DNA of 64,000 bases from Candidatus Multivorans sp. Its GTDB lineage: Bacteria; Acidobacteriota; Thermoanaerobaculia; Multivoradales; Multivoraceae. The position numbers and the translations under genes were made by a program. Location: the NCBI GenBank assembly GCA_965262355.1, contig OZ253534.1:1280845-1344844 (forward strand), read 5' to 3'. Below the pieces are notes generated by a model that worked only from the letters and a program-made list of their open reading frames with translations, was not told where the DNA came from and made no database searches. Below are positions 39,040-56,745 of the stretch, in pieces. Within the stretch, counting starts at the first letter, position 1; each line of letters opens with the position of its first letter.

Positions 39040-40591
39040 GCGGAGATCCCGCATCGCCTGCATGAGGGCGGCGCTCTTTCCACTGGCCGCCTACCTGCGG
39101 GGGGCGCCGGAGCTCGCCCGGGAGGCGGTCGTGGTCCACGAGGGACCCTCGGCGCGGATCGTCGCCGCCTCCCGGCTGGCGCGCCGCGCGGGGGTGCGAC
39201 CGGGGCTGACCGTGGCCCAGGCCCGGAACATCGAGTCCGGCCTGGTCGACCGCGTCCGCGACCCGGAGCGCGAGCACACCGCGCAGGAGGTGCTGATCGA
39301 GATCGCCGGCGCCTTCTCGCCCCGGGTCGAGGACGGCGGCGAGGGCATGGTCTACCTCGACATCGCGGCCGATGACGAACACAACTTCGGCCAGACGATG
39401 ATGCGGGACATGGATGCCGCCGGCCTGCCCGGGCGGGTCGGCATCGCCGGCAGCAAGCTCGCGGCGCAGGCCGCGGCCGCCCTGCCGCGGTCGCCGAACG
39501 TCGTGGCGCCCCGGGGTGAAGCCCGGTTTCTGGCGCCGTTGCCGCTCAACGCCCTGCTCGAGAGCGGCGGCAGCGGTTCCGGCGACACGGCGCCGAAAGG
39601 CGACGACCAGGAGATCCTCCCCACGCTGAAGCTCTGGGGCCTGCGCACGGTCGGCGACCTGGCCGGCCTGCCGGCTGGCGAGGTCCACAGCCGTCTCGGC
39701 GAGCGCGGCACAGCGCTCCACGCCGCCGCCCGGGGCATCGATCCGGCGCCGCTCACTCCCCGTCCGCCGCCGCCCACCTTCCGCGAGTCGCAGACCCTGG
39801 AGTGGCCTATCGACAACCTGGAACCGTTCCTGTTCGTCGCCCGCGGGGCGGTCGAACGGCTCACCTCCCGGCTCGAAGCCCGAGGCATGGGCTGCAAGCG
39901 GCTCGAGCTGTCACTCAAGATCGAGCCCGAGGGCCTCCACGAGGTGGCGATCGAGCTGCCGGCGCCCACGCGCGAGGCCCGAACGCTGCTGTCGCTCGTC
40001 CGCCTCCACCTGGAGGCGGAACCGCCGCGGGCGCCGATCACCGGCATGCAGCTTTCGGCTCACCCCGATGCCCCGCGCCAGGCTCAACTCAGCCTGCTCG
40101 GCCCTGCCGCCCTGTCGCCCGATCGCCTGGCCGCAGTTACGGCCCGGCTACTCGCCCTGCTCGGGCCGAACCGGGTCGGCTCGCCGCGCACCCGGAACGG
40201 CCACCTGCCGGAACGCTTCCGGATCGCCGACTACGACCCGCCGCCGCCGCCACGCATCCGGCTCGAACCGCGGCCCGGCCGCGGCATGCTGGCGGTGCGC
40301 ACCCTGCGGCCTCCGGTCGAGATCGAGGTGCTGACCGTCGAGGCGGGCAAAACTCCCGCTCCCTGTCCCGAACCGGTGCGGATCAACCTTCTGCCCACCG
40401 AGGAACGCCATGTCCGGATCGAGGGTGCGGTCCGCACCGCTGCCGGGCCGTGGGAGATCGAGGAGGGCTGGTGGCGGGAGGTCCCGGCCCTGCGGGACTA
40501 CTGGGACGTGGAACTGCGAAACGGCGCCGTGTGCCGGATCTATCGTGACCGGGGTTCGGAACGGTGGTTCGCGGATGGAGTGTACGACTGA
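39029..40591 (+). CDS. imuB: ImuB (catalytically inactive Y-family polymerase homologue)
   Basis: Y-family palm/fingers-like N-terminal half lacking the acidic catalytic triad. 520 aa. Start may be at 39062 (MRAALFPLAAYL...). Confidence 0.75.
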   Translation: MPAKRRSRIACMRAALFPLAAYLRGAPELAREAVVVHEGPSARIVAASRLARRAGVRPGLTVAQARNIESGLVDRVRDPEREHTAQEVLIEIAGAFSPRVEDGGEGMVYLDIAADDEHNFGQTMMRDMDAAGLPGRVGIAGSKLAAQAAAALPRSPNVVAPRGEARFLAPLPLNALLESGGSGSGDTAPKGDDQEILPTLKLWGLRTVGDLAGLPAGEVHSRLGERGTALHAAARGIDPAPLTPRPPPPTFRESQTLEWPIDNLEPFLFVARGAVERLTSRLEARGMGCKRLELSLKIEPEGLHEVAIELPAPTREARTLLSLVRLHLEAEPPRAPITGMQLSAHPDAPRQAQLSLLGPAALSPDRLAAVTARLLALLGPNRVGSPRTRNGHLPERFRIADYDPPPPPRIRLEPRPGRGMLAVRTLRPPVEIEVLTVEAGKTPAPCPEPVRINLLPTEERHVRIEGAVRTAAGPWEIEEGWWREVPALRDYWDVELRNGAVCRIYRDRGSERWFADGVYD

Positions 40592-40619
40592 GGGTCTCGA
40601 CCGAAACACGCGCTGCTCC

Positions 40620-41738
40620 CTAGTGTACTGTCTCCAACATGGCTTTACCACGTGTAACCTTTGCGATGATGCTGTCGGCGGTGGCCGTCCAGACGAACGG
40701 CCGGGAGTTTTCGTTGCTGTGCTCCACGTAGTCGTAGATGGTCTTTACGAGGTCGTTGACGCTCTGGAATGCACCGCGCCGGATCGCCTTCGTGGTCAGA
40801 CCGCCCAGCCAGCGTTCGACCAGGTTGAGCCAGGGCGACGAAGTCGGAATGAAATGGAAGTGGAAGCGAGGCTTTCGCTCCAGCCATGCGCGCACGGCGG
40901 CGTGTTTGTGGGTCTGGTAGTTGTCCAGGATCAGGTGCAGGTCGAGATGCTTCGGGATCTCACGGTCGAGACGCTTGAGGAAACGGAGAAACTCCTGGTG
41001 GCGCTGCCGGCCCATGCACTCCGCGATCACCGTGCCCTCCAACACGTTCAGCGCAGCGAACAACGTCGTCGTCCCGTTGCGCTTGTAGTCGTGGGTCATC
41101 GTTCCCGCGCGGCCGCGCTTGAGCGGCAAGCCCGGCTGGGTCCGGTCCAGAGCCTGGATCTGGCTCTTCTCGTCCACGCACAACACAAGCGCGTTCTCGG
41201 GCGGATTCCGGTACAGGCCCACAACGTCCCGCAGCTTTTCCACGAACCTGGGGTCGTTGCTCAGCTTGAACGTCTTGACCAGATGGGGCTTCAGCCCGTG
41301 CGCCACCCAGATGCGCTGGACCGCCGCCGGACTGATGCCCTGGGCCCGAGCCATCGAACGCACGCTCCAGTGGGTCTGACCGGGCGGCTTCTCGTGCAGC
41401 GTCGCTTCGATCATTTTACGCACGACCGACTCCGAGAGCGGCGGCTTTCCGCAACCGCGGGGACGATCCCTGGTCAGCCCCGAAGGTCCGTCCTCCGCGA
41501 ACCGACGACGCCACAGCAGCACCGTGGGCCGCGAAACGCCGAGTTTCGCCGCAATCGCCCGATTGGCCGTGCCCTCCGCCGCAGCGAGCACGATCCGGCT
41601 ACGCCGGACGGTGCGTTGCGTCGTCGTCGGCGCCTCTACCCATTTCTTGAGAAGCGCTCGATCGCTCTCTTCGATGTGAAGTCGTTCCGCTGGTTCCCAC
41701 ATGAACGGAATACTGACGAACTTGCCCGAGACTGTCAA
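40620..41738 (-). CDS. IS630-family transposase (HTH + DDE_3)
   Basis: 372 aa. The transposase stop TAG overlaps the TA duplication. Confidence 0.9.
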   Translation of the reverse strand: MTVSGKFVSIPFMWEPAERLHIEESDRALLKKWVEAPTTTQRTVRRSRIVLAAAEGTANRAIAAKLGVSRPTVLLWRRRFAEDGPSGLTRDRPRGCGKPPLSESVVRKMIEATLHEKPPGQTHWSVRSMARAQGISPAAVQRIWVAHGLKPHLVKTFKLSNDPRFVEKLRDVVGLYRNPPENALVLCVDEKSQIQALDRTQPGLPLKRGRAGTMTHDYKRNGTTTLFAALNVLEGTVIAECMGRQRHQEFLRFLKRLDREIPKHLDLHLILDNYQTHKHAAVRAWLERKPRFHFHFIPTSSPWLNLVERWLGGLTTKAIRRGAFQSVNDLVKTIYDYVEHSNENSRPFVWTATADSIIAKVTRGKAMLETVH

Positions 41739-41759
41739 CCCATGTCGGAGACACTACAC
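40623..41759. mobile_element. IS630-family insertion sequence, copy A (1137 bp), with TA target duplication
   Basis: Terminal inverted repeats GTGTACTGTCTCC ... GGAGACACTACAC flanked by TA at 40621-22 and 41760-61. Confidence 0.85.
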
Positions 41760-41937
41760 TAGAAGCCCACGCCACTACGCCAGACACCACCTCTCTCGCT
41801 CGGTGAAAACGACACTCTCACTCTTGTGCTAGACACTCGGGCTGCTACACGACCACTTCGGTCAAGACACGCCTGCTCATACCCATCGGAACGACCGACC
41901 ACCAGGCGCCGGGCCTGCGCATGAACGAACAGAGGAT

Positions 41938-42720
41938 ATGAAGTTGCCACACCAAACGTACTTCTCCCAACGCACCGGCGTGAATCCACATCCCGATGGC
42001 CTACCGCTCGCTGACATCGTCGACCTCTTCCTGCGTGTCTACGAGGACCTAGAGACTGAGGGCTACTTCGATGAGGCGTTCGGTTTTGAATGCGTCGATG
42101 CAGGCCACATCGCGGGTCGCGTGAAGGACGTGGAATTGGAAGTCCTCTTGGCAATCCGAAAGAGAGAACTCTGGCCTATCGCTGATCATGCCGACGGGTA
42201 CAGCGAAGATGACCTCTTCGACCTACTGGAGTTCCTATTCCAACATGTGTCAAGACCGGTCGACGGTGAGAATCATAGTTGGGGTCAATGTGGGATGCAC
42301 TGGGAGACCTTTAACCGCGAGGACGGCCAGGAGCACTACCGGTCAAAGATGAACCAAGTCCTGGACCATTACGAACGAGCATTCGAGCTGTCGCCGGAGG
42401 GCCAGATCCTGCGCCGAGTAGAGGCAGGATTTGAGACGACCTTCGAAGCGGACATGCCATCAGAAGACCCCAAAGTGGTGTCACGTGTTGAAGCCGCAGT
42501 CTCCACCTACCGTCGACACCATTCGACAGTGGAGGATCGACGCCAAGCCGTCCGCGACTTGGCGGACGTACTTGAGCACCTTCGCCCTCAGATCAAATCA
42601 CTACTCACAAAGAAGGACGAAGGAGACCTCTTCAACATCGCCAACAACTTTGGAATCAGGCACCACAACGACAAGCAGCAAACCGGATACGACACCGCAC
42701 TGTGGCTCAGTTTGAGCTTG
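41938..42720 (+). pseudogene. hypothetical protein gene (low GC), 3' end interrupted by an IS3 insertion
   Basis: The coding-looking frame runs into the IS3 left inverted repeat at ~42719. No family recognised. Confidence 0.45.
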
Positions 42721-42766
42721 ACCCGTTTTGGTGGACACCTCATTCTTGGAAGAGGAGGTATCCACG

Positions 42767-43075
42767 ATGTCGAGAAGAAGGAGCCGGTACCCAGCAGAGT
42801 ACCGGCAGCAGATGGTGGATCTGGTCCGGTCCGGGCGGAGCCCGGACCAACTAGCCCGCGAGTTCGAGCCGTCAGCGCAGTCGATCCGGAACTGGGTCGC
42901 CCAGGCGGACCGGGACGAGGGTCGCCGCAGCGACGGGAGCACGACGGCGGAGCGTGAGGAGTTGCGCCGTCTGCGCCGGGAGAATCGCCGGCTGCGGGAA
43001 GAGCGGGAGATCCTGGCAAAAGCAACGGCCTGGTTCGCTCGGGAGACGGAACCGAAGGGGTCTTCCGGTTCATGA
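42767..43075 (+). CDS. IS3 OrfA (HTH transposase N-terminal part)
   Basis: MSRRRSRYPAEYRQQMVDLVRSGRS ... leucine-zipper region. Ends 4 nt inside orfB. Confidence 0.8.
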   Translation: MSRRRSRYPAEYRQQMVDLVRSGRSPDQLAREFEPSAQSIRNWVAQADRDEGRRSDGSTTAEREELRRLRRENRRLREEREILAKATAWFARETEPKGSSGS

Positions 43076-43920
43076 GAGCGCACCGGGCCGAGTTCCGCGT
43101 CACGACGATGGCCCGCGTGCTCGGCGTCTCCACGAGCGGGTTCTACGCCTGGCTGAGGCGCCCGCGGTCGGCCAGGGAGAAGTCGGACACCGCTCTCGCC
43201 GAGCGGGTGCGGGCGATTCACGAACGGAGCCGAGGGACCTACGGGGCGCCGAGGATTCAGGCTGAACTGGCCGACTGTGGGTTCGCAGTGAGCCGCATGC
43301 GCGTTGCCAGACTGATGCGAGAGTCCGGCCTGGCGGGCATCAGCCGCCGCAAACGGCCGACGACGACCCGTCGCGCCGCCTCGGTTCGCCCGGCGCCGGA
43401 CCTCGTTGATCGGCAGTTCGTGGCCGAGACCCCGGATCGGCTGTGGGTCGCGGACATCACTTACGTTCCGACGCTTGCCGGGTTCGTGTACCTGTCGATC
43501 GTCCTGGACGTATTCAGTCGGCGAATCGTCGGCTGGGCCATGAACTCTTCTCTGGCAACCGACCTCGTGCTCAGCGCTCTGGAGATGGCGATTGCCCAGC
43601 GGCGACCCGAGTGCGTGATCCACCACTCCGATCAAGGCAGCCAGTACGCTTCCCTAACGTTCGGGAACCGCTGCCGCGATGCCGGCATCGCACTCTCGAT
43701 GGGTTCCGTCGGAGATTGCTACGACAACGCCATGGCCGAGAGCTTCTTCGCCAGCCTCGAGTGCGAGCTGCTCGACCAGACAACGTTCCGAAATCACGCC
43801 GAAGCGAAGGCGGAACTCTTTCGCTACATCGAGGGCTGGTACGATACCCATCGTCGCCATTCGGCGATCGGACAACGCTCACCCGTCAACTTCGAAGAGG
43901 CGTACCGAGAGGCCGCCTGA
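43072..43920 (+). CDS. IS3 OrfB (DDE integrase-core transposase)
   Basis: D..D..E catalytic core (WVADITYV ... HSDQGSQY ... ESFFASLE). Confidence 0.9.
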   Translation: MRAHRAEFRVTTMARVLGVSTSGFYAWLRRPRSAREKSDTALAERVRAIHERSRGTYGAPRIQAELADCGFAVSRMRVARLMRESGLAGISRRKRPTTTRRAASVRPAPDLVDRQFVAETPDRLWVADITYVPTLAGFVYLSIVLDVFSRRIVGWAMNSSLATDLVLSALEMAIAQRRPECVIHHSDQGSQYASLTFGNRCRDAGIALSMGSVGDCYDNAMAESFFASLECELLDQTTFRNHAEAKAELFRYIEGWYDTHRRHSAIGQRSPVNFEEAYREAA

Positions 43921-44045: not shown

Positions 44046-45242
44046 CTACACCACGGTACGGGACTCTGGACCACGTAAACAGCGACGCACGAAGTCGTCG
44101 AACCAGGGTACCGTAAAGTCAACCTCACCCCAACGCGGCGAGTAGCAGAGCCCCTTCTTGATCAGCTTGTCGCGCACAGGTCCCACGCCCGGTGTGTCCT
44201 TGCCCATGGTTGCCGCGACACGACCTGAAGCATACGGACCCTCGCCAAGCGACGCCATGGCGACCAGGTACTCGCGCTCTGAATCGGTCGTGCGGTCGAT
44301 CCGGACTCGGAAGAAGCCGGTATCCAGTTCATCGACCGCAGTCGGCACCGCGGTATCCACGTCCCTGGCAGTGATTTTGGCCGGACCATCCGCCAGGTCC
44401 CACGCCTGCTTGCCGAACTCCTGAAGGAAGTAGGGGTAGCCCCGAGTCTCGCCGACGATTCGGTCGAGCGCGTCCGGCTGCCAGACGACTCCTTCTTCTT
44501 CAGCCGGCTCGACCAGCGCTGCTCTGGCGTCGCCGTCGTCCAAACTGTTGATCGACTGGAAGTTGAAAAGGCGCTCCGCGTACGATTTCGCTTCGCCGGC
44601 GAGGGCCGGCACCGACGGCAGGCCAGCGGCGACCAACATGAATGGAAGCTGCTCCTGATTGACTTGGTGGAGGCCAACGATCAGGGCCCCCAGGTCCTTC
44701 CGCTTCAGGTACTGGACCTCATCCAACGTGATCAACACGCCGCGCTCTCGCTCCCGGGCTACGTCGCCGACCTCGGTGAACAGACCAGACAGGTCCTCGT
44801 CCAGAAGCCCGGAATCTGCCCAGCCGGGCACGGGGTCCAGTCCGACGGTCACATCGCCGCCGTCCGGAAGGTTCCAGCGCATCTGGAAGGACTTCAGGAC
44901 TCCCAACGCACGCCGGCCCCGCTCGGCCAGGTTGTGCGCCGGTGAAAGCCGCAAGAGCACCTTGCGCACCAGTCCGGCCACAGCTTGGGGGAGTCGCATC
45001 CCCTCACTAGCCTCAAGCGGCTGGCAGACCCAGTCCCGCTCTTGGCCGAGGCGACGAAACTCCCGCAAGAGGACCGTCTTCCCGACGCCGCGCAGGCCAG
45101 TCAGAATCACGCTCTTGGCGGAACGGCCGAGCCTGAGACGCTCGATCGCGACACGGATGATCTCAAGCTCAGCATCACGACCTACGAGTGCGGGCGGCGG
45201 ACTGCCGGCACCTGGGCTGTAGGGGTTCCGGATCGGGTTCAT
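44046..45242 (-). CDS. AAA-type ATP-binding protein (ORC/Cdc6-like AAA+ with C-terminal winged-helix/DUF234-like)
   Basis: NPYSPGAG ... LVGRDAELE ... LTGLRGVGKT Walker A and DEVQ Walker B. 398 aa. Confidence 0.8.
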   Translation of the reverse strand: MNPIRNPYSPGAGSPPPALVGRDAELEIIRVAIERLRLGRSAKSVILTGLRGVGKTVLLREFRRLGQERDWVCQPLEASEGMRLPQAVAGLVRKVLLRLSPAHNLAERGRRALGVLKSFQMRWNLPDGGDVTVGLDPVPGWADSGLLDEDLSGLFTEVGDVARERERGVLITLDEVQYLKRKDLGALIVGLHQVNQEQLPFMLVAAGLPSVPALAGEAKSYAERLFNFQSINSLDDGDARAALVEPAEEEGVVWQPDALDRIVGETRGYPYFLQEFGKQAWDLADGPAKITARDVDTAVPTAVDELDTGFFRVRIDRTTDSEREYLVAMASLGEGPYASGRVAATMGKDTPGVGPVRDKLIKKGLCYSPRWGEVDFTVPWFDDFVRRCLRGPESRTVV

Positions 45243-45376
45243 CGGACGATTATAGGGTTCTGCCCGATTTATATCTAGATTAGCTATAAACTAGGCAGAT
45301 CGCTATAAACGCGAGACGACGCAACGACTGCTCACGCTTGGCGTGTAAGCAGCCCGGTAGTCCGAACGCGCCAGCC
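45243..45376. promoter_or_regulatory. AT-rich segment upstream of the ATPase gene with direct repeats GCTATAAAC (x2) and a CTAG ... CTAG symmetry
   Basis: ttatagggttctgcccgatttatatctagattagctataaactaggcagatcgctataaacgcg. A striking AT island in ~70% GC DNA. Confidence 0.3.
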
Positions 45377-45766
45377 TCAATCGCCTGGCAGGGTGGGTCG
45401 CGGCACCTGCCCGCCAATCACCTGCTCCGCCACCACCCGGCCGCCGATCAGGTGTTCCTGGATCACTCGTTCGAGCACCTCGGGGGTGCAGCCCCAGTAC
45501 CAGACGCCCTCCGGGTAGACGACCGCGATCGGGCCGGCGTCGCAGATCCGCAGGCAGTTCGCCTTCGTCCGCATGACCGTGCCGGACTCCGTCAGGCCGA
45601 CCTCGACCAGGCGGCGCTTGAGGAACGCCCACGACTCGAGTGACGTCTCCAGCTCACAGCACTTCGGCGTCGTCTGGTCGCAGCACAGGAAGATGTGCCG
45701 CTGCACGTTCGAGATGCCGATGGCCTCGGCTTTGCGACGGGCACGGTCGAGCGCTTCGCGGTCCAT
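45377..45766 (-). CDS. thioredoxin-like (2Fe-2S) ferredoxin-domain protein
   Basis: Cys cluster [10 protein letters not shown] ... CLRICD. Start taken at MDREALD (45766) rather than 45820, to avoid start codons overlapping the divergent gene. Confidence 0.55.
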
Positions 45767-45818
45767 GGCGCCGATGATTCCATGACCGGTGCGGAGCCCG
45801 GCGATAGTCTGCTCCGCC

Positions 45819-46196
45819 ATGAAGCTGTTCGAGGCCGCCTATCCGTTCCAGGACGATGTCCTGGCTCTGCCGGTCGAGGATCTCGACGCGACTGCGAAGT
45901 GGTACGCGAGTGCCTTCGGCCTCCAGGAGGTCGAGCGACGTGAAGAGCCCGTGCCGACGGTCATCCTCGAACGCGACGGCGTCCGGATCGGCTTCGCGAT
46001 CAACGGCGGCGACGCGAGCATGGACGGCGCGGCGATCCTGGTCACCGACATCAAGCGAGCGCGGGCCGAACTCAAGGGCAACGGCGTCAAGGTCAAGAAC
46101 TGGCGCATCGACAAGCGGGACGGGAAGAAGTTCCGGGTCTTCTTCGTCGTCGCGCCGGATGGTCTCTGCTACTATTTCCATCAGCCGGTCCTGTAA
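45819..46196 (+). CDS. VOC-family (glyoxalase/bleomycin-resistance fold) protein
   Basis: ~125 aa. Paired beta-alpha-beta-beta-beta modules; H/E metal-ligand positions plausible. Confidence 0.65.
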
Positions 46197-46288
46197 TCTC
46201 TACGACCCGCCAACGATGGGCGACCGCGTAGAATCAGCGGCGACGCCAACGCCCGCTACGGGCTTTCAGCCAGCACGGTATAGGCCTG

Positions 46289-46624
46289 ATGCTCACTCTC
46301 GACCCCGATGAACAGACTTGGCTGGATGAGTACCGGGGAGCGCTCCGAGACGCCCACGCCGAGGCTGTTCTGCGCCTGGTCGTCTACGGGTCCAAGGCCC
46401 GCGGCGACGCCCATGCAGAGAGCGATCTGGATCTCCTGCTCATCGTGCGAGACGATGCCGCCGACCTGAAACGGCCACTCAGGCGCATCGGGTACGAACT
46501 GGCCGCGCCCGCGCTGGTTCACCCGTCCATCATGGCGTACACGCAAGCGGAGTGGAACGCGCTTGAGCGCTATCGCTCGACCTACCACGCCTCAGTCGAG
46601 CGCGAAGGCATCCCGGTGCTTTGA
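46289..46624 (+). CDS. MNT-type nucleotidyltransferase (antitoxin-like)
   Basis: YGSKARGDAHAESDLDLLLI matches the GSx9-13DxD minimal-nucleotidyltransferase motif. Confidence 0.8.
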   Translation: MLTLDPDEQTWLDEYRGALRDAHAEAVLRLVVYGSKARGDAHAESDLDLLLIVRDDAADLKRPLRRIGYELAAPALVHPSIMAYTQAEWNALERYRSTYHASVEREGIPVL

Positions 46625-47043
46625 ACAAGGAAGCGGTGATAGCGGAGTGGCGACGGGCCTTGACTTCCCTGGGGGCAGCCGAGGTCCTCGTGCGGGCGGC
46701 CCACCATGAGGACGCTGTCGGCACCTCGTACTATGCGATCTTCCACGCGGCGAAGGCGGCCTTAGCCGTCCACAGTGTCGAAACATCGACCCACGCGGGA
46801 CTGCGGAGCATGTTCGGCCTGCATTTGGTGCAAGAAGGCGAGATAGAACCTCGGTGGGCAGCCGACCTCGGCGAAAGTCTCGACGATCGCGTGAAGGCCG
46901 ACTACAACGTCTTCGCTCACTTCTCGGAGGAAGACGCCAGCGATCAGCACGATCGAGCGAGGGTGTTCCTGAAACGTATTCGGGACTACCTCCTGGCGAG
47001 GGGGTTGACCGAGAACGAGATTCCAACCGCCCCAGCCGACTGA
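46621..47043 (+). CDS. HEPN-domain protein (toxin-like partner of the MNT)
   Basis: TTGA start/stop overlap with the MNT gene. All-helical ~140 aa. Classic MNT-HEPN pairing. Confidence 0.7.
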   Translation: MNKEAVIAEWRRALTSLGAAEVLVRAAHHEDAVGTSYYAIFHAAKAALAVHSVETSTHAGLRSMFGLHLVQEGEIEPRWAADLGESLDDRVKADYNVFAHFSEEDASDQHDRARVFLKRIRDYLLARGLTENEIPTAPAD

Positions 47044-47055
47044 CTGGCACAGCCG

Positions 47056-48711
47056 ATGGTCACTACTCCACCTCCGCAGCCTGGATCCGCCCAGCTCATG
47101 CGGCTCTCCAATGCCCTCGTAGTCTACAACCGGGCCTTCCGAAGTCATCTCAGCGCTGTCCTGCGGAAAAACCTCGGCCGCGATTGGTGGCAGCAGGGGA
47201 TCGTCCGAAGGATCTCCACGATTCAGGCAGACATCGAACACCTCGGCCTTGAGATCGAGACCGACATTGACGCCTTGTCGGTACTGGAGCCGAAGCACTA
47301 CCCTTGGATCGTCAGAGAACACCGGGAGCACTTCCAGAGGCTGTTCAACAAGCGCAGCTTCCACATCGCCAAGGTAGGAGGCAGCCCGACAACCCTCATG
47401 CATGAGGTGGCTGACTGGCGAAACGTGAACGCCCATCCGCCCGCACGCGACCTCGACCCTGCGGTCGTTGACCGGGCTGTCGACTCGATGCTCCGTCTTG
47501 TGGGCCTCTTCGACCCAGAAGCACATGACGAACTATCCAAGCTGTCGGGCAAGGCGAAGATCAAAGGAGAGCCGGAACACCGGCCCAATATCGTCTCCGG
47601 AGCCGAGAGCAAAGCGAAGAGCATCGTCGCAAAGGCGGAAGACCTGGCGCGCACTATCCGGAACGACGCCGAACGGGAGGCGATGGACATTCAGAAGGAC
47701 GCGGAGGCCCAAGCCGAAGCCATTCGGGCCGGAGCGCAGGAGAAAGCCAGGTCCAATCGGGCTTCAAGACCGAATACCTTCGTTCCTCGCGAAGATCGCG
47801 AGAAGATTGACCGTGTTCAGATGCGCGTGCGGCAACTCGAAAACGAGAAGGCGAGCGCACAGTCCGAACTCAAAACGGCACGCCGCAACATCATTGTCCT
47901 TGAGAAACGCGCGCGTTCGATAGAAGACGACGCCAAGAGGAAAGCTGGCAGAACCCTGCGAACGGCACGAGAAGAGGCCGAGACCATCCGTCTGCGACCG
48001 CAGCAGAGTGAGACCTTCCAGTCGCTTCTCAAAGAGGCCGAGGAAAAAGCGGCGCAACACGCCGCAGACATCCTGCAAGACGCAAACGCTGCGCGACAGG
48101 AGACCCTCGCCGGAACGAAAGGTCAAGCCGAGAGGATCCTCGCCGAAGCCCGTAGGGAACTGGCCACCATTCTCGCTGACGCCAATGAGAAAGAGCGCGG
48201 GGTTCTGGCGAAAGCGGAGCGCAGGGCAACCGAGATCCGCGAGGAGGCACGGCGGGCCCCAGGGAGAATCCGCGGCGAAGCTCACAGTGTCGAACCGCCA
48301 GCTCGGGACGAACCAGGCCGTGAGAAGCTCAAGGTAGCCCAAAGCAGAGCCGCAGACGACTTCCGGAGGCGTTTCAAGCCCGCGCGGTCGGGAAACGGCC
48401 ACCTCCGCTCTTTCGGCATCGACGGTTGGTGGCTCAACTGCTGGGTGGGTAGAACGAATGGACTACCTCGCGCCAGTGTCTTCGCCCCAGCCAAGACCAT
48501 CAACGGGAGGCGAATCGAGGCCCAGGACACACCCTTGATGGAGAGCGTATGCGCCAGCGAGGAGGGAGCCTTTGAATGGCTGCGCGAGAGGGATGAAAGT
48601 GGTCAGATCCGCCGGGAGGCGCGTCGTGCGATCCATTTGTTCGAGAGAGAGGAGCGCGACGACGAACCCACGCTCGAGAGCGATGCGCTCGACGACGACA
48701 TTCCGTTCTGA
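47056..48711 (+). CDS. 551-aa protein: N-terminal Swt1-like HEPN (R-N-x3-H) domain fused to a long ATP-synthase-b-like coiled coil and a unique C-terminal domain
   Basis: EVADWRNVNAHP matches the Swt1-type HEPN Rx4H motif. Residues ~170-400 are E/A/R/K-rich heptad repeats. Confidence 0.55.
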   Translation: MVTTPPPQPGSAQLMRLSNALVVYNRAFRSHLSAVLRKNLGRDWWQQGIVRRISTIQADIEHLGLEIETDIDALSVLEPKHYPWIVREHREHFQRLFNKRSFHIAKVGGSPTTLMHEVADWRNVNAHPPARDLDPAVVDRAVDSMLRLVGLFDPEAHDELSKLSGKAKIKGEPEHRPNIVSGAESKAKSIVAKAEDLARTIRNDAEREAMDIQKDAEAQAEAIRAGAQEKARSNRASRPNTFVPREDREKIDRVQMRVRQLENEKASAQSELKTARRNIIVLEKRARSIEDDAKRKAGRTLRTAREEAETIRLRPQQSETFQSLLKEAEEKAAQHAADILQDANAARQETLAGTKGQAERILAEARRELATILADANEKERGVLAKAERRATEIREEARRAPGRIRGEAHSVEPPARDEPGREKLKVAQSRAADDFRRRFKPARSGNGHLRSFGIDGWWLNCWVGRTNGLPRASVFAPAKTINGRRIEAQDTPLMESVCASEEGAFEWLRERDESGQIRREARRAIHLFEREERDDEPTLESDALDDDIPF

Positions 48712-48715
48712 GGGT

Positions 48716-50434
48716 CAGCGGCCAATAGGTCGCTGCTTCCCGCTCGTGACGCTCCTTCTGGTCACGCCGGCCATCTCCGCCACCGCCCAGGACTTCGCCG
48801 AACTCCTGGAGATCCGGCGCGTCAGGGCAACCCTGGACCTGAGCCAGGTGCCGGAACCGGACCTGACCGGGGTCCCCGCGGTGGACGCGCGGCGCCTTCG
48901 GGACTACCGGGCGCTCACAGCCGGCGCTCTGGAACACGCCGCCGAACCGCTGCAGGCGCAGTTGGCGGTGAACAGCTACGGCGATCTCTGCGTGCGTTAC
49001 CTGCACTACGAGCTTCACGACACGGCCGCCGCCTGCCTGGACCAGATCCGGGAGCTGGCGCCGGCGGACTTCCAGTTTGCCTACTTCCAGCTCTTGCTGG
49101 ACATTGCGACCGGCGACCTGGAAGGGGCTCTCTCCAGCGCCGAGCAGGCGCTCGTCATCCGGCCCGACGACCCGCCGGCCTTGATCCGCCTGGCCGAACT
49201 CCACGTCGCGACCGGCGACGTCGATGCCGCCGAAGCCGCGTACGAAGCGGCGCTTGCGGCCTATCCGGAGAGCGCGACGGCCCGCGTCGGCCTCGGTTAC
49301 ATCGCGATGGAACGCGGCGACCCGGCGCGCGCGCTCGAGATCTTCCAGGAAGTCGCTGCGTCCCAGCCCGAGGGCAGCGAGGCGAACCACCACGTCGGTC
49401 TCGCCTACCGCACCCTCGGCGACGCCGACCGGGCTGCCGAGGCGTGGCGCCTGAACCAGGACATCCTGATCCCGATGTACGACCCGCTACTCGAACGCCT
49501 CAGGCCGCTTGAGGAAGACGTGATCCTGCCCCTGGACCGCGCCGTCGCCGCCGCCGCGGAGGGCGACCACGAGCGGGCGGTCGGGCTGTTTGAGGAGATC
49601 CTCCAAGCGAACGAAGCGGACGACGAGGCCCACTTCCGCCTGGCCGGCTCGCTGCTGGTGTCGGGCGACTCGGCACGCGGCCAACGGCACCTGCGCCGGG
49701 CCATCTCCCTGAACGCGGACCACGCCGGGGCCCACTTCGCTCTCGCCATGGTCCTCGCCCAGGCCGGACGCCGCGCCGAGGGCGCCCAGCACCTGGAACG
49801 TGCGGCCGATCTCGCACCCGAGAACCTGACCTGGCGTCTTCAGCGGGCACAGATGCGGGCCGCCTCGGGCAACACCGCCGGCGCCATCGACGAACTCAGG
49901 CAGGTCGTTGCCCTCGACCCCGGGATGATCGAGGCGCGAAGGATGCTCTCCGCCGTGCTGGTCGGCACCGGCCGGACGGAAGACGCCGCCGCCCAGTTGC
50001 AGGCTCTGGTCGCTCTGACGCCGGACGACCTGCAGGCGCGGTTCAATCTCGGACTGATGCTGTTCGAGACCGGCCGCTACGCGGAGGCGCGTGTGGCTCT
50101 CGACGAAGCTCTGGGGCGCTTCCCCAGCGATGTCGCCACCCGCCACCTGCTGGCGCGATTGCTGGCTACGAGTCCCGACGACGCAGCGCGGGACGGCGCC
50201 CGGGCGGTCGAGCTGGCTCAGTCGGTGGTCGACGAACAACCCGCACTCGACCACCTCGAGACGCTGGCGATGGCCCTGGCCGAGGCCGGGCGGTTCGACG
50301 ACGCGATCGCCTGGCAGCAACGGGCGCTGGAACGGGAACGGGCCGAGGCCGGTGGCAACTCGTCCCAGCGGCTGGATCGGCTGGCGCTCTACCAGGCGCG
50401 CCAGCCGCTGCGGGCGCCGCGGCGGCAGAACTAG
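48716..50434 (+). CDS. secreted TPR-repeat protein
   Basis: Signal peptide (PLVTLLLVTPAISATAQD); the start is uncertain because the 5' region overlaps the previous gene end. More than 10 TPR-like repeats. Confidence 0.6.
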   Translation, partial: QRPIGRCFPLVTLLLVTPAISATAQDFAELLEIRRVRATLDLSQVPEPDLTGVPAVDARRLRDYRALTAGALEHAAEPLQAQLAVNSYGDLCVRYLHYELHDTAAACLDQIRELAPADFQFAYFQLLLDIATGDLEGALSSAEQALVIRPDDPPALIRLAELHVATGDVDAAEAAYEAALAAYPESATARVGLGYIAMERGDPARALEIFQEVAASQPEGSEANHHVGLAYRTLGDADRAAEAWRLNQDILIPMYDPLLERLRPLEEDVILPLDRAVAAAAEGDHERAVGLFEEILQANEADDEAHFRLAGSLLVSGDSARGQRHLRRAISLNADHAGAHFALAMVLAQAGRRAEGAQHLERAADLAPENLTWRLQRAQMRAASGNTAGAIDELRQVVALDPGMIEARRMLSAVLVGTGRTEDAAAQLQALVALTPDDLQARFNLGLMLFETGRYAEARVALDEALGRFPSDVATRHLLARLLATSPDDAARDGARAVELAQSVVDEQPALDHLETLAMALAEAGRFDDAIAWQQRALERERAEAGGNSSQRLDRLALYQARQPLRAPRRQN

Positions 50435-50484: not shown

Positions 50485-53400
50485 ATGGCCCCCAAGGTAC
50501 CCAAGGTCGACGTACCGGCCCGCAACATGGGCCTGTCCGGCTCGATGCGCAAGGGCAGCAGCCGCGGCGGCGGTAGCGGCAACGGTCTGCTCGACGCCCG
50601 GGGCGAGCCGAACCCCGGCTACGCCGCGCCGGGTGCGGTCAAGGAGCAACTGCGCCGGCGCCAGTTCCAGTCTCCGCCCAAGCGCCGGCGGGGGGCCCCG
50701 CCCTACGCCGAACTCCACACCGCTTCGTCGTTCTCCTTTCTGCGCGGCTCGTCGCAACCCGAGGACCTGGTGGCGCGCGCGGCGGCGCTGGGGCTGCCGG
50801 CAGTCGCCCTGCTCGACCGGAACGGCGTCTCCGGCGCGCCGCGCTTCTACAAGGCGGCGCGTGAGGCGGGAATCCGGGCGCTGGTCGGCGCCGAGGCGGT
50901 CATCGACCGGCCGCAGGCGTCCACGGCGTCGCGGCAGCGCGAGGAGCGGCCGATGCTGGACGACCAGGAGACCCGCGTCCACCTCCTGGTGCGGAGTCGA
51001 CAGGGCTATCGCAACCTCTGCCGCCTGCTGACCGCCGGAGCGCTCAACCACCCCAAGGGCGAGGCCCGGATCGACTGGACGCTGCTCGAGGAACACGCGG
51101 CGGGGCTCCACTGCCTGGCCGGCGCCGCAACCGATCCGGTCGGCAGGGCGCTGGCGCGGGAAGGGTTGGAGGCCGCCCAGCGGCAGCTCGAACGGCTGCA
51201 CGCCGTTTTCCCCGGCCGCCTGCACGTGGAGCTCGCTCGGCACGGCATCCGCGCCGAGGAACACCGCAACCAGGCCCTGGTCCGGATGGCGCAGGGGCTC
51301 AAGGCGCCGGTCGTGGCCACCGGCGGCGTGCGCTACGCCACCGCCGCCGACAAGCCCCTCTACGACCTGATGACCGCGATCCGGCACCACGTGACGGTCG
51401 ACGACGCCGGCGCGCGCCTCGCCCGTGAGCGCCAGCGCCGCCTCAGGAGCCCGGAGGAGATGCACCGGCTGTTCGCCGATCTGCCGCAGGCGGTCCACGC
51501 CGCACACGATCTGGCCGCTGAACTCGACTTCACCCTCGCCGACCTCGGCTACCGCTTCCCGGACTATCCGCTGCCCGCCGGCGAGACCGCGATCTCAACC
51601 CTCCGCGAACTGACCTGGCAGGGGGCGCGGGAGCGCTTCCGGCCGCTCACCGCCCGCGCCGGGGCACAGCTCGAGAAGGAACTCGCGCTGATCGGGAAGC
51701 TCGACCTCGCCGGCTACTTCCTGATCGTCTGGGACATCGTCCGCTTCTGCAAGGAGCAGCGGATCTTCGCCCAGGGCCGCGGCTCGGCCGCCAACTCCGC
51801 GGTCTGTTACGCACTCTCCATCACCGCGGTGGACCCGGTGAAGATGGACCTCCTGTTCGAGCGCTTCCTGTCCGAGGAACGCGGCGAGTGGCCGGACATC
51901 GACATCGACCTGCCGTCCGGCGACCAGCGCGAGAAGGTGATCCAGTACGTCTACCGGCGCTACGGCCGGCACGGCGCGGCGATGACCGCGAACGTGATCA
52001 CCTACCGCGATCGTATGGCCGCGCGCGAGGCGGCCAAGGCGCTCGGGTGCTCCAAGTCCCAGGTCGACCAGCTGGCCAACTTGAGCCGCGGCGACAGCAA
52101 GGAGATGGACAAGGAGTTGACCGAACTCGGGTTCGATCCCCGCGACCGGCGCATCCAGCTCTTCATCCGCCTGTGGCGGCAGCTCCAGAACCATCCCCGT
52201 CACCTGGGGCAGCACTCGGGCGGCATGGTGCTCTGCGCCGGCCGGCTGGACGAGATCGTGCCGCTTGAACCGGCGGCGATGGAGAACCGGGTCATCGTCC
52301 AGTGGGACAAGGACGACTGCGCCGATCTGGGGATCATCAAGGTCGACCTGCTCGGCCTCGGCATGCTGAACGCGCTCGAGGAGGCGGTGCCCCTGATCCG
52401 CCGGCACGAGGGCACGGAGATCGACCTCGCCCACCTGCCGCCCGACGACCCGGCGGTCTACGAGATGATCTGCCGCGCCGACACGGTCGGGGTCTTCCAG
52501 ATCGAGAGCCGGGCGCAGATGGCGTCCCTGCCGCGCCACCGGCCATACAAGTTCTACGACCTCGTGATCCAGATCGCGATCATCCGTCCCGGCCCGATCG
52601 TCGGCCGCATGGCCCATCCCTTCTTCGAGCGCCGGGTGGGCCGCGAGGAGGTCACCTACCCTCACCCGCTGCTCGAGCCGATCCTGCGCCGCACCCTCGG
52701 CGTGCCGATCTTCCAGGAGCAGATTCTCAAGATCGCCATGGTCGCGGCCGGGTTCTCCGGCGGCGAGGCGGAGGACCTGCGGCGCGCGATGGGCTTCAAG
52801 CGCTCCGTCGAGCGTATGCAGCAGATCGAGCACCGGCTGCGCTCCGGCATGAACGAACGCGGCATCCAGGGCGTTGCCCAGGAGCAGATCGTCAAGGCGA
52901 TCACGTCGTTCGCGCTCTACGGCTTCCCCGAGTCGCACTCCGCCAGCTTCGCCCTGATCGCCTACGCCAGCGCCTACCTGAAGCGTCACCACCCGACCGC
53001 CTTCTTCCTGTCGCTCCTGAACGCCTGGCCGATGGGCTTCTACCACCCGGCGACCCTGGTCCGCGAAGCGCAGCGCGCGGGCAGCGTCGTGCTGCCGATC
53101 GACGTGAACGAATCGGGGGTGAGGTGCCGCTGGCAGGACCGGCCGGCGGAGAACGACGCCGGTGTGCAGACCGGCGAGCCGCCCCCGCCGGGCGCGATCC
53201 GCCTCGGGCTCCGTTACATCAAGGGGATGCGGCGCGAAGCGGCGGAACGGATCGAGGCCGAGCAGGCGGCGAGGCGGTTCCGTTCGATCGAGGATCTGGC
53301 CGAGCGCTGCCGCCTGCGCCGGAACGAACTCGTGGCCCTGGCGTCCATTGGCGCGTTGCCCGGGCGCGGCCGGCGCGCGGCACTGTGGCAGGCGGCCCAG

Positions 53401-53880
53401 GTCGAGAAGCCGAAGGGCCCCCTGTTCGCGGATCTCTCAACCGCGACTCCCTCGCCGCTCGACGAGATGACAGAGGTGGAAGAGACCGCAGCCGATTTCG
53501 CCATCGCCTCGATCACCACCGGCCCTCACCCGATGGAGTACTACCGCCGGGCGCTCGACCGCCGCCGCGTCGTGACCGCCGCCGCACTCCCGGACCGGCC
53601 CGCCGGCCGCCGCGTGCGCACCGCCGGCTCGGTCATCGTCCGCCAGCGCCCGGGCACCGCCCGCGGCCTCCTGTTCCTGACCCTGGAGGACGAGACCGGC
53701 ATGAGCCAGACCATCGTCATGCCGGATCAGCTCAAGAAGCACCGCCGCACGATCGTCTCGTCCTCCGGCCTGATCGTCGAAGGCGTGCTGCAGAAGAAGG
53801 ACGGCTCGCTATCCGTCAAGGCGGACAAGTTCTGGCCGATCGACCGGCTGGAGCGGATCCCGAGCCACGATTTCAGGTAG
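50485..53880 (+). CDS. dnaE2: error-prone DNA polymerase DnaE2 (ImuC)
   Basis: PHP domain (YAELHTASSFSFLRGSS), Pol III alpha core, OB-fold. 1131 aa. Same strand as imuAB. Confidence 0.9.
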   Translation: MAPKVPKVDVPARNMGLSGSMRKGSSRGGGSGNGLLDARGEPNPGYAAPGAVKEQLRRRQFQSPPKRRRGAPPYAELHTASSFSFLRGSSQPEDLVARAAALGLPAVALLDRNGVSGAPRFYKAAREAGIRALVGAEAVIDRPQASTASRQREERPMLDDQETRVHLLVRSRQGYRNLCRLLTAGALNHPKGEARIDWTLLEEHAAGLHCLAGAATDPVGRALAREGLEAAQRQLERLHAVFPGRLHVELARHGIRAEEHRNQALVRMAQGLKAPVVATGGVRYATAADKPLYDLMTAIRHHVTVDDAGARLARERQRRLRSPEEMHRLFADLPQAVHAAHDLAAELDFTLADLGYRFPDYPLPAGETAISTLRELTWQGARERFRPLTARAGAQLEKELALIGKLDLAGYFLIVWDIVRFCKEQRIFAQGRGSAANSAVCYALSITAVDPVKMDLLFERFLSEERGEWPDIDIDLPSGDQREKVIQYVYRRYGRHGAAMTANVITYRDRMAAREAAKALGCSKSQVDQLANLSRGDSKEMDKELTELGFDPRDRRIQLFIRLWRQLQNHPRHLGQHSGGMVLCAGRLDEIVPLEPAAMENRVIVQWDKDDCADLGIIKVDLLGLGMLNALEEAVPLIRRHEGTEIDLAHLPPDDPAVYEMICRADTVGVFQIESRAQMASLPRHRPYKFYDLVIQIAIIRPGPIVGRMAHPFFERRVGREEVTYPHPLLEPILRRTLGVPIFQEQILKIAMVAAGFSGGEAEDLRRAMGFKRSVERMQQIEHRLRSGMNERGIQGVAQEQIVKAITSFALYGFPESHSASFALIAYASAYLKRHHPTAFFLSLLNAWPMGFYHPATLVREAQRAGSVVLPIDVNESGVRCRWQDRPAENDAGVQTGEPPPPGAIRLGLRYIKGMRREAAERIEAEQAARRFRSIEDLAERCRLRRNELVALASIGALPGRGRRAALWQAAQVEKPKGPLFADLSTATPSPLDEMTEVEETAADFAIASITTGPHPMEYYRRALDRRRVVTAAALPDRPAGRRVRTAGSVIVRQRPGTARGLLFLTLEDETGMSQTIVMPDQLKKHRRTIVSSSGLIVEGVLQKKDGSLSVKADKFWPIDRLERIPSHDFR

Positions 53881-53894
53881 CGCGACCAAGCACT

Positions 53895-54539
53895 TCATCC
53901 GCCTTCGGGAAAGATGCACTGGAGATTGTCCACATCGCTCTCTGTCGCGTAGAAAACCCGAGATCCTGTCTCCCACGGAACATCGAGCGCACCGCGCGAC
54001 ATCTCAACTCCAATCAACTCGGGCTGATCCACGGCGTGCTTGAAACCCAGGAGATGAAACAACTCGTGGACGATGACCTCTCCGTCGCGTCCATTGGCGT
54101 TCCCCTGACAACAAGGATCGTCATCGGTCCACCATGGCCCCAGGGCGCGTTTGTTGTAGCTCAGAGTCCCGCAACAGGCATGGGCGCTCATTATTGAGCC
54201 CCCTCTGCCATCCCAATCCTGAGGGTTATCGTCGTTCATGTAGAACACAAGGATTTGACCGCGCTCGCGAAGCAGATAGGACTCCGAGAAGCGACCGAAT
54301 TCCTGATCCCAACCCGCTGGTGCGCTGGACGGGACCTCGATCAACTCGCCCATCTCAACGATCCGGTACCCGAGCTGCGCCTCGATCTGATCGGCTAGCC
54401 GACCGATCGGATCGAGCAACTGCTGGAGATCTGTGTCGGTGACGAACTCGGGAAAGTTGCGCACCATGTCCACACGAAACGGGGTTCCATCCCACTCCCC
54501 GACTACGCCGTGGTCTCCGAAGTAGGAATCATGGCGCAA
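53895..54539 (-). pseudogene. metzincin-type zinc metalloprotease domain (HELFHLLGFKH), 3' portion of a gene split by IS630 copy B
   Basis: HExxHxxGxxH motif. After removing the IS and one TA copy, the frame is continuous with the repeat-protein ORF at 55720+. Confidence 0.6.
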
Positions 54540-54580
54540 CGCCAGGGATCTGGTGTCCGTACATTCTCTGCCGGCGGCTA

Positions 54581-55717
54581 GTGTAGTGTCTCCGACATGG
54601 GTTGACAGTCTCGGGCAAGTTCGTCAGTATTCCGTTCATGTGGGAACCAGCGGAACGACTTCACATCGAAGAGAGCGATCGAGCGCTTCTCAAGAAATGG
54701 GTAGAGGCGCCGACGACGACGCAACGCACCGTCCGGCGTAGCCGGATCGTGCTCGCTGCGGCGGAGGGCACGGCCAATCGGGCGATTGCGGCGAAACTCG
54801 GCGTTTCGCGGCCCACGGTGCTGCTGTGGCGTCGTCGGTTCGCGGAGGACGGACCTTCGGGGCTGACCAGGGATCGTCCCCGCGGTTGCGGAAAGCCGCC
54901 GCTCTCGGAGTCGGTCGTGCGTAAAGTGATCGAAGCGACGCTGCACGAGAAGCCGCCCGGTCAGACCCACTGGAGCGTGCGTTCGATGGCTCGGGCCCAG
55001 GGCATCAGTCCGGCGGCGGTCCAGCGCATCTGGGTGGCGCACGGGCTGAAGCCCCATCTGGTCAAGACGTTCAAGCTGAGCAACGACCCCAGGTTCGTGG
55101 AAAAGCTGCGGGACGTTGTGGGCCTGTACCGGAATCCGCCCGAGAACGCGCTTGTGTTGTGCGTGGACGAGAAGAGCCAGATCCAGGCTCTGGACCGGAC
55201 CCAGCCGGGCTTGCCGCTCAAGCGCGGCCGCGCGGGAACGATGACCCACGACTACAAGCGCAACGGGACGACGACGTTGTTCGCTGCGCTGAACGTGTTG
55301 GAGGGCACGGTGATCGCGGAGTGCATGGGCCGGCAGCGCCACCAGGAGTTTCTCCGTTTCCTCAAGCGTCTCGACCGTGAGATCCCGAAGCATCTCGACC
55401 TGCACCTGATCCTGGACAACTACCAGACCCACAAACACGCCGCCGTGCGCGCATGGCTGGAGCGAAAGCCTCGCTTCCACTTCCATTTCATTCCGACTTC
55501 GTCGCCCTGGCTCAACCTGGTCGAACGCTGGCTGGGCGGTCTGACCACGAAGGCGATCCGGCGCGGTGCATTCCAGAGCGTCAACGACCTCGTAAAGACC
55601 ATCTACGACTACGTGGAGCACAGCAACGAAAACTCCCGGCCGTTCGTCTGGACGGCCACCGCCGACAGCATCATCGCAAAGGTTACACGTGGTAAAGCCA
55701 TGTTGGAGACAGTACAC
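54581..55717. mobile_element. IS630-family insertion sequence, copy B (1137 bp), inverted relative to copy A
   Basis: Same inverted repeats as copy A. TA at 54579-80 and 55718-19. The transposase CDS differs from copy A by one residue (V vs M). Confidence 0.85.
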
Positions 55718-55720
55718 TAG
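54602..55720 (+). CDS. IS630-family transposase
   Basis: 372 aa, 371/372 identical to copy A. Confidence 0.9.
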   Translation: MTVSGKFVSIPFMWEPAERLHIEESDRALLKKWVEAPTTTQRTVRRSRIVLAAAEGTANRAIAAKLGVSRPTVLLWRRRFAEDGPSGLTRDRPRGCGKPPLSESVVRKVIEATLHEKPPGQTHWSVRSMARAQGISPAAVQRIWVAHGLKPHLVKTFKLSNDPRFVEKLRDVVGLYRNPPENALVLCVDEKSQIQALDRTQPGLPLKRGRAGTMTHDYKRNGTTTLFAALNVLEGTVIAECMGRQRHQEFLRFLKRLDREIPKHLDLHLILDNYQTHKHAAVRAWLERKPRFHFHFIPTSSPWLNLVERWLGGLTTKAIRRGAFQSVNDLVKTIYDYVEHSNENSRPFVWTATADSIIAKVTRGKAMLETVH

Positions 55721-56736: not shown

Positions 56737-56745
56737 AGGCCTGGA

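Follow-up and report, generated by a model that had tools for sequence, protein, structure and literature searches.

A predicted sensor-coupled HEPN RNase with an SSB-tip-like tail in the native imuB-dnaE2 locus of Candidatus Multivorans

HEPN RNases fused to variable sensors recur in bacterial conflict systems, and the targets they recognise are mostly unknown. HEPN active sites need two HEPN domains together; in the anticodon nucleases RloC and PrrC the HEPN RNase is kept latent by a regulatory module, and RloC carries a long coiled-coil insert and responds to DNA damage. Bacterial Swt1-like HEPN domains (PF18731) belong to the Abi2/Swt1 group of Anantharaman et al. 2013 (PMC3710099), and the architectures in that survey comprise PIN+HEPN (Swt1), HEPN+AAA+ (Ava_2192/DUF499), transmembrane-linked forms, and helicase or restriction endonuclease fusions (PMC3710099). 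The hexapeptide DDDIPF is the C-terminal tip of the bacterial single-stranded DNA (ssDNA)-binding protein SSB and a docking peptide for many replication and repair proteins (PMC5872125). Here we describe positions 44046-50434 of a 64,000-nucleotide stretch of Candidatus Multivorans sp. (assembly GCA_965262355.1, contig OZ253534.1; hereafter the window), in which one gene encodes a 551-amino-acid (551-aa) protein with an N-terminal HEPN domain, a coiled-coil-like spacer, a new C-terminal domain (CTD), and a tail ending in DDDIPF. We read this protein as a self-contained, sensor-coupled HEPN RNase effector, predicted from sequence comparison and encoded in a native locus between imuB and dnaE2, and give this reading a probability of about 0.55. 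Loci (L) and proteins (P) of relatives are cited by number.

The N-terminal domain is classed here, by profile and alignment, as a Swt1-like HEPN, in keeping with the Swt1-type Rx4H HEPN proposed in an earlier note on this DNA. The HEPN_Swt1 profile (PF18731) matched seven of eight close homologues (best E 3.6e-7) and 18 of 21 diverse members of the same architecture at E<0.01 (best E 1e-14), among them P0015 (55.2 bits) and P0025 (49.5 bits), both above the Pfam cut-off of 27.5. The window domain aligns with P0015 over its whole length (BLASTP E 2e-15), and its membership follows from transitive homology via P0015 and P0025. The motif EVADWRNVNAHP lies at residues 117-128 and includes R122 and H127, which are the sole invariant columns of the N-terminal alignment (21 proteins, 21-56% identity), with N123 and A126 nearly invariant; this invariance argues for a predicted active RNase. 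The AlphaFold2 (AF2) model of the domain is all-helical and of moderate confidence (pLDDT 75), the predicted catalytic loop (103-130) staying below 55. Public assemblies annotate a 537-aa product starting at M15 of the 551-aa open reading frame (ORF); the upstream start is favoured because the homologue P0007 has R, not M, at this position.

The middle region (residues 169-436) consists to 58% of A, E, R, K, and Q, shows heptad periodicity in five of nine windows, and gives weak profile matches only, to DivIVA/Wag31, FliH, and V-ATPase E; it is the least conserved and most length-variable part of the protein, with indels among orthologues. From these features, which also bear out the coiled-coil middle of the earlier note, we infer a dimerising coiled-coil spacer. 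The same weak matches would suit a coiled-coil protein with a structural or scaffolding role, DivIVA- or stator-like, whose HEPN domain is catalytically silent and whose end binds nucleic acid; the Swt1 HEPN of eukaryotes is regarded as inactive (PMC3710099). Such a protein is highly unlikely here: the R and H of Rx4H remain invariant, and N and A nearly so, family-wide at the low identities given above; the coiled coil is the part that varies most, widely so in length; and bacterial Swt1-like HEPNs are described as active (PMC3710099).

The CTD (residues 437-531) is modelled as six beta strands followed by two helices (AF2, pLDDT 87) and carries the signature ARSGNG..W..WVG..A.VFAP..PL..SEE.AF (family form ARSGNGW..WVG..ACVFAPS..PL..SEEEAF). 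Foldseek found nothing significant for it in the PDB (best E 0.34) or in BFVD, where the top match (E 2e-3) was an unnamed protein. Neither SSB nor OB profiles matched, Foldseek gave no OB match, and the profiles of both domains, N- and C-terminal, found no relatives among PDB sequences. The best Foldseek look-alikes include the ssDNA binders PC4/Sub1 and PUR-alpha and are non-significant (TM 0.26-0.33). The protein ends in ...DALDDDIPF, the last six residues being identical to the SSB C-terminal hexapeptide. This tip is conserved in seven of seven full-length orthologues, and a terminal D-[D/E]-[I/V]-P-F is nearly invariant in the 21 diverse members, despite P/S/D-rich linkers of 7-33 residues. 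Tips of family members include DDDIPF, DEDIPF, DDVPF, EDVVPF, DEVPF, and FDDFIPF. Across a six-frame translation of all fetched loci (1.54 Mb) the pattern is restricted to the ends of family members (12/12). Averaged over the 21 members, the net charge is +4.6 for the beta part, which has about eight aromatic residues, and -4.8 for the tail. We consider the tip probably a functional mimic of the SSB tip. The unique C-terminal domain of the earlier note stands as a new domain, its terminal SSB tip having gone unnoticed there.

The family is rare and apparently undescribed. Close homologues of the 551-aa protein number eight among 5.8 billion proteins. An exhaustive hidden Markov model (HMM) search of 1.84 billion cluster representatives with the CTD profile returned 49 proteins at E<=1e-3, 39 of them at E<=1e-10, counted as clusters at 50% identity; word-indexed searches with the N- and C-terminal profiles added few proteins, the exhaustive HMM search alone being sensitive enough. 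About 20 of the 49 share the full architecture (N-terminal RNxxxH HEPN, length-variable coiled coil, CTD, linker, SSB-like tip), and many are clearly from unrelated, lower-G+C organisms. In PADLOC-DB v2 the best match of the 551-aa protein was at E 0.034 (PDC-M34B) and the HEPN had none; neither the HEPN survey (PMC3710099) nor full-text literature searching yielded a description of the architecture. The statement of the earlier note that no named system could be assigned agrees with these results: nothing below E 0.03 in PADLOC, no PDB relatives, and no paper found.

The CTD is a mobile module with several fusion partners. Forms that lack the HEPN (P0042, P0044-P0047, P0050, P0052; P0009; P0030) include a Ser/Thr kinase followed by the CTD and transmembrane segments, which has no tip; a Schlafen/AlbA_2 protein with two CTD copies; and a DnaJ protein with three S1 RNA-binding domains. 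Small membrane-anchored CTD forms carry the tip.

Outside the clade of the window, one family member adjoins a DndD-like/SNF2/N6_N4-methyltransferase cluster (L087) and another a MrfA/MrfB-like helicase-exonuclease pair (L091). On two unrelated contigs (L088, 7070-8414; L092, 371-1789) the gene lies between an ABC-transporter ATPase and a MacB-type permease, a further example of a position within a housekeeping operon; the L088 copy is broken, probably by a frameshift, into two ORFs that overlap. In L089/L090 the gene is flanked by an ammonium transporter on one side and a P450 on the other, and DarT-Macro lies at a distance of 7 kb. No MNT, small HEPN, or TPR neighbour was found beside these distant members (L087-L092).

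Within the clade (Acidobacteriota/Thermoanaerobaculia, 'Candidatus Multivorans' group) the block reads imuA, imuB, AAA_16 (-), ferredoxin-like (-), glyoxalase, MNT, HEPN, 551-aa homologue, TPR, and dnaE2, and all homologues of the 551-aa protein with readable context occupy this imuB-dnaE2 locus. The earlier note had regarded the ATPase, MNT/HEPN, 551-aa, and TPR genes as a mobile defence cargo within an IS630-bracketed segment, with the TPR protein as a partner. Two nearly identical, inverted IS630 copies do bracket the region (Table 1); in addition, the G+C content is lowered across 41-49 kb, 20-34 kb, further upstream, is occupied by a true defence island, and the start of the TPR gene overlaps the 3' end of the 551-aa gene, all of which speak for such a cargo. 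Against it, no IS630 was found in the corresponding loci of the relatives L001/L002, L003, L085, L086, and L093/L094, which hold the same genes in the same place, order, and orientation; the site is likewise occupied, without IS630, in L005-L011. The bracketed segment also contains the complete native dnaE2. The TPR gene, with a core-like G+C content, is found in all clade genomes that have a complete dnaE2 locus without the 551-aa gene, and neither a TPR nor an ATPase gene neighbours distant family members. A cargo of this kind, carried by an IS630 composite element, is therefore very improbable.

Because the IS-free relatives carry the same genes in the same order between imuB and dnaE2, positions 44046-50434 are a native chromosomal stretch around which IS630 and an IS3-family insertion sequence (IS) were inserted later. 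Between imuB and the ATPase gene, the left IS630 copy aside, foreign DNA is confined to a fragment of a PDC-S32/AbiJ-like gene and the IS3 element that cuts it (41938-43920); neither is present in L001 and L093, in which the ATPase gene follows imuB directly. The sister assembly L004, which encodes an identical 551-aa protein, differs in its upstream IS content, and for this reason the IS activity is recent and the block old. An inversion between the inverted IS630 copies was rejected, since the gene orientation equals that of the IS-free relatives. We hold the genomic conclusions as a whole with high confidence. In the sister assembly just the last quarter of the PDC-S32/AbiJ_NTD4-like candidate defence gene is retained. 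IS brackets and low G+C are thus not proof of a cargo; synteny here reveals a native locus with decaying accessory genes.

Presence and absence of the block genes were scored by tblastn over dnaE2 loci, the clade relatives sharing 86-95% DnaE2 identity. The TPR gene (77-87% identity) occurs in all clade relatives whose dnaE2 locus is complete, including eight of the eight complete loci without the 551-aa gene (L005-L011, L057); because it is kept whether or not the 551-aa gene is present, it is not a dedicated partner. Of the gene pair whose conservation as core in relatives the earlier note had named as refuting evidence, the TPR gene is such a core gene and the HEPN/coiled-coil gene is not. 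The ferredoxin-like gene (83-92%) is present in all clade relatives but L003, and the VOC/glyoxalase gene (86-96%) in L001, L006, L007, L008, L010, and L011. Presence varies across the clade loci for the ATPase, MNT, HEPN, and 551-aa genes: the ATPase is found in the window, L001, L008, L009, L010, L085, and L093, and absent or fragmentary in the others; an intact 551-aa gene in the window/L004, L001/L002, L085, and L086 only. The ATPase occurs without the MNT/HEPN pair in L009, the 551-aa gene without the ATPase in L003, and MNT with HEPN but without the 551-aa gene in L008 and L010, and the one coherent system with the ATPase that the earlier note had envisaged falls on these combinations. 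The locus mixes clade-core genes (ferredoxin-like, VOC/glyoxalase, TPR) with three independent, often lost accessory elements that are separable from one another: the AAA_16 ATPase, the MNT/HEPN-T pair, and the 551-aa gene.

Several copies are visibly decayed. In L003 an ISL3 element splits the 551-aa gene, the last 57 codons of which persist as a separate ORF after the element, and the small HEPN gene beside the remnant is mostly deleted. In L093/L094 (DnaE2 94% identical) what is left of the 551-aa gene is residues 8-81, followed in another frame by 460-551, and the small HEPN is reduced to residues 1-65 with MNT intact (L093 8453-9171). L005 has kept MNT (blastn matches only part of it) and neither HEPN gene. 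Carriers of the 551-aa gene are dispersed over the DnaE2 neighbour-joining tree, and the protein is 47-50% identical between genomes with 88% DnaE2 identity, the divergence lying mostly in the middle region. The pattern fits an ancestral toxin-like accessory module that was repeatedly lost, not a recent acquisition.

The position between imuB and dnaE2, on the dnaE2 strand and with short gaps, would also suit a housekeeping or DNA-damage factor tied to ImuA-ImuB-DnaE2. Its tip would recruit the RNase to SSB clients at stalled forks, or compete with SSB, for example in clearing RNA at lesions; the SSB-tip motif does suggest replication or repair partners (PMC5872125), and the distant member in L091 adjoins a MrfA/MrfB-like pair. 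We nevertheless judge such a tie quite unlikely, given that the 551-aa gene is missing from eight full-length dnaE2 loci of the clade (L005-L011, L057), has been repeatedly inactivated, and does not stand beside imuAB or dnaE2 in distant members, and that about 70 dnaE2 loci from outside the clade lack every one of the block genes. In other Acidobacteriota the imuB-dnaE2 gap is closed or holds unrelated ordinary genes (subtilase, BlaR1/TonB, TonB-dependent receptor, aminopeptidase P, GH44, and a GGDEF-EAL protein in the open gaps); a defence hotspot in this gap was rejected on account of these ordinary genes. The LexA-box pattern GTTCN7GTTC had no match nearer than about 10 kb of the genes, and GAACN4GTTC had a single nearby exact match, inside the 3' end of imuB, and none between or upstream of the genes.

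Positions 46289-47043, the MNT/HEPN pair of the earlier note, are best called an MNT/HEPN-T pair on the strength of the NTP_transf_2 and PF05168 matches and a 4-nucleotide (nt) overlap of the two genes. The MNT motif GSx10DxD reads YGSKARGDAHAESDLDL; MNT matches the PADLOC candidate PDC-S09 (E 1.2e-13) and scores 25.7 bits with NCBIfam MntA_antitoxin, versus a cut-off of 60. The second gene encodes a PF05168 HEPN, not PF01934, of the 'HEPN-T' class described in PMC3710099, with the variant DDRVKADY in which D/Y replace the canonical H; it ends 12 nt before the 551-aa gene. A type VII HepT-MntA system was rejected, as this HEPN lacks the HepT/DUF86 RX4HXY and the MntA score is under the cut-off.

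Several observations weigh against the reading of the 551-aa protein as a self-contained, sensor-coupled HEPN RNase effector. With HEPN_Swt1 the window protein itself scores 19.9 bits (E 9e-4), under the Pfam cut-off, and a Foldseek search of the N-terminal model against the PDB returned no HEPN, only globins at E about 1 and none at E<0.7. The putative coiled coil is read from composition, periodicity, and weak profile matches. The distant contexts are mixed and several are housekeeping (ABC ATPase/MacB permease in two contigs, ammonium transporter), so that any enrichment in defence islands is at best putative; scans of two IMG/VR and two JGI metagenome contig sets found no family member, and hence gave no link to mobile elements. 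Finally, the intact 551-aa gene of the clade is always accompanied by intact MNT and HEPN-T genes (window/L004, L001/L002, L085, L086).

This last point is what a three-gene toxin-antitoxin system would produce, in which MNT neutralises both HEPN-T and the 551-aa protein as a second, sensor-equipped toxin. The tight spacing (the 4-nt overlap, then the 12-nt gap) points the same way, and MNT outlives both decayed HEPN genes (L003, L005, L093), as expected of an antidote. MntA-type enzymes modify the tyrosine of RX4HXY in HepT (type VII toxin-antitoxin), a residue that the 551-aa motif RNVNAHPP does not have; outside the clade the family has no MNT or HEPN-T neighbour; L008 and L010 have intact MNT/HEPN-T without the 551-aa gene; and the sample of four intact and three decayed loci is small. 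We consider the three-gene system unlikely, though less so than a tie to ImuA-ImuB-DnaE2, and retain the self-contained effector as the preferred reading.

How such an effector might work can be outlined conditionally. The coiled coil would form a parallel dimer that pairs two HEPN domains, and the C-terminal module would act as sensor or regulator. In one version the tip would be a bait for a protein with an SSB-tip pocket, either a client of the host SSB or a phage protein that ordinarily relies on host SSB, for example a RecT-type recombinase; candidate captured proteins are phage RecT/Red-beta-type recombinases or phage replication proteins. In the other, the acidic tip would lie against the basic and aromatic-rich domain, as in SSB, and be displaced from there by ssDNA or RNA. 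Either event would license RNA cleavage and lead to growth arrest, as abortive infection or a stress response. We put this sensor switch forward tentatively, at somewhat less than even odds. Slightly more doubtful, if anything, is an immune or stress sensor that mimics the SSB tail, as bait or as auto-inhibitory latch on a new ssDNA-binding domain, and relays the signal via the coiled coil to a dimeric HEPN RNase. If the tip engages the pockets of SSB clients, this would to our knowledge be the first known toxin or immune effector mimicking the SSB tail. It would link RNA-level growth arrest to the replication and recombination hub on which phages must draw. Phage RecT needs the C-terminal tail of the host SSB in order to function (bioRxiv 10.1101/2020.04.14.041095; PMC13490951), and bacterial immunity sensing phage SSB exists (PMC13402713). 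A conserved, exact SSB docking peptide on a nuclease is an unusually readable clue to the target of a sensor, and the CTD adds a new domain, modelled with confidence, that is found fused to several partners (HEPN, Ser/Thr kinase, Schlafen/AlbA_2, DnaJ+S1).

The features of the window are collected in Table 1. All ORFs listed by the earlier note exist at the positions given there and its genes are correct, the ferredoxin-like and VOC/glyoxalase genes having been skipped. Its ORC-like ATPase is an AAA_16 ATPase, with a likeness to ORC/Cdc6 that profile searches confine to the N-terminal P-loop region; a PDB sequence search gave no relatives of this ATPase and PADLOC-DB v2 nothing below E 0.01. 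The ferredoxin-like gene has a 129-aa product in public assemblies, which gives a start near 45766. The open frame of the TPR gene reaches back to 48572; the probable start at ATG 48683 corresponds to the 583-aa product of public assemblies and gives a 29-nt overlap with the 551-aa gene and a signal-peptide-like N-terminus, as expected from the secreted TPR protein with overlapping 5' end noted before. The G+C content of the TPR gene is 0.715, like flanking core genes, and that of the 1-kb windows with the 551-aa gene (47-49 kb) 0.605-0.651. Promoter and terminator scans of 43.9-50.6 kb gave background level.

Table 1 Features of the window. Positions are those of the 64,000-nucleotide stretch; nt, nucleotides.
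Feature	Position	Strand	Evidence or remark
1361-aa double-PIN / PIN-TPR-GreABC protein	20371-24456		upstream island
ApeA (ApeA_NTD1+HEPN_Apea)	26575-28038	-	upstream island
Eco57I-like methylase/restriction protein	28914-32216	-	upstream island
DUF222+HNH	32575-34014		upstream island
Fic	36790-37947	-	upstream island
imuB (Y-family polymerase-like), left edge of native locus	39029-40591	+	IMS E 8.5e-12, synteny
IS630-family element, left copy	40619-41767	-	28 nt after imuB
PDC-S32/AbiJ_NTD4-like gene fragment	41938 to about 42700	+	cut by IS3-family element
IS3-family element	orfA 42728-43075, orfB 43072-43920	+	disrupts PDC-S32/AbiJ_NTD4-like gene
AAA_16 P-loop ATPase, accessory	44046-45242	-	Pfam AAA_16 E 1.3e-16
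2Fe-2S ferredoxin-like gene, clade core	45377-45820	-	NCBIfam fdxn_Clost E 2.5e-14
VOC/glyoxalase-family gene, in most of clade	45789-46196	+	Glyoxalase E 8.6e-7
MNT, putative antitoxin	46289-46624	+	NTP_transf_2 E 1.6e-7, GSx10DxD motif
PF05168 'HEPN-T' HEPN, putative toxin	46621-47043	+	PF05168 E 6.8e-15
551-aa protein (HEPN, coiled coil, new CTD, SSB-tip-like tail)	47056-48711	+	
Swt1-like HEPN domain, residues 15-165	47098-47550	+	Pfam HEPN_Swt1 over residues 20-149
Rx4H predicted catalytic motif R-N-V-N-A-H, R122 to H127	47419-47436	+	conserved in 21 proteins
A/E/R/K/Q-rich helical, coiled-coil-like spacer, residues 169-436	47560-48363	+	composition, heptad periodicity
New CTD, residues 437-531	48364-48648	+	AF2 pLDDT 87, own profile
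Acidic disordered linker, then tip DDDIPF (48691-48708)	48649-48708	+	conservation in family
TPR protein, periplasmic, clade core	48683-50434	+	TPR_16 E 3e-41
dnaE2 (error-prone polymerase alpha subunit), right edge of native locus	50485-53880	+	
IS630-family element, right copy	54573-55721	+	inverted versus left copy, 3 mismatches

Outside the native locus, the low-G+C stretch 20371-37947 upstream of imuA is a real defence island; inside it lies a direct duplication (33956-34558 / 34855-35398) of 98-100% identical blocks with starts about 880-900 nt apart. Directly after dnaE2, 53895-54539 (-) encodes a 214-aa protein that matched neither Pfam nor NCBIfam and is conserved in L093 (95%) and L010 (76%); an N6_N4 methyltransferase is found there in L001 and L003. 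Downstream of the right IS630, 56648-56744 is a 97-nt dnaE2 fragment (cf. 53046-53142; 93% identical), which predates the IS insertion because it is also found downstream of the 214-aa gene in L093. Beside the same IS630 copy, at 55900-56950 (-), a unit of about 447 nt occurs twice in tandem, the copies being about 80% identical (56076-56139 versus 56523-56586); the units encode two copies of a Cys/Gly-rich domain of unassigned function.

Compared with known systems, the 551-aa protein resembles the bacterial Swt1-like HEPN proteins in the conserved Rx4H, the predicted activity, and the fusion to other modules, and differs from the surveyed ones in that none has a coiled coil, this CTD, or an SSB-like tip. 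With bacterial SSB it shares a basic, aromatic-rich beta domain, a variable P/S/D-rich linker, and an identical DDDIPF (PMC5872125); unlike SSB, its CTD has no OB-fold match, continues into two helices, and is attached to a nuclease. The neighbouring pair is like MNT/HEPN toxin-antitoxin pairs (MNT first, 4-nt overlap, GSx10DxD, PF05168 HEPN), and unlike type VII HepT-MntA in that its HEPN is not a HepT/DUF86 RX4HXY protein and the 551-aa gene is an extra gene, found solo in other lineages. ApeA and AbiJ likewise combine a variable sensor and a HEPN effector in one polypeptide, with patchy distribution and frequent loss; in the 551-aa protein, in contrast, the HEPN comes first, in reversed order, the putative sensor is an unrelated domain, and no PADLOC model matches. 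As in RloC and PrrC, one polypeptide would hold a HEPN RNase, a coiled coil, and a plausible module for DNA or replication status, and suicidal RNA cleavage would be expected. The 551-aa protein differs from them in having no ABC/Rad50-type ATPase or zinc hook and in its N-terminal, not C-terminal, HEPN, and its putative sensor combines a new beta domain and an SSB-tip peptide.

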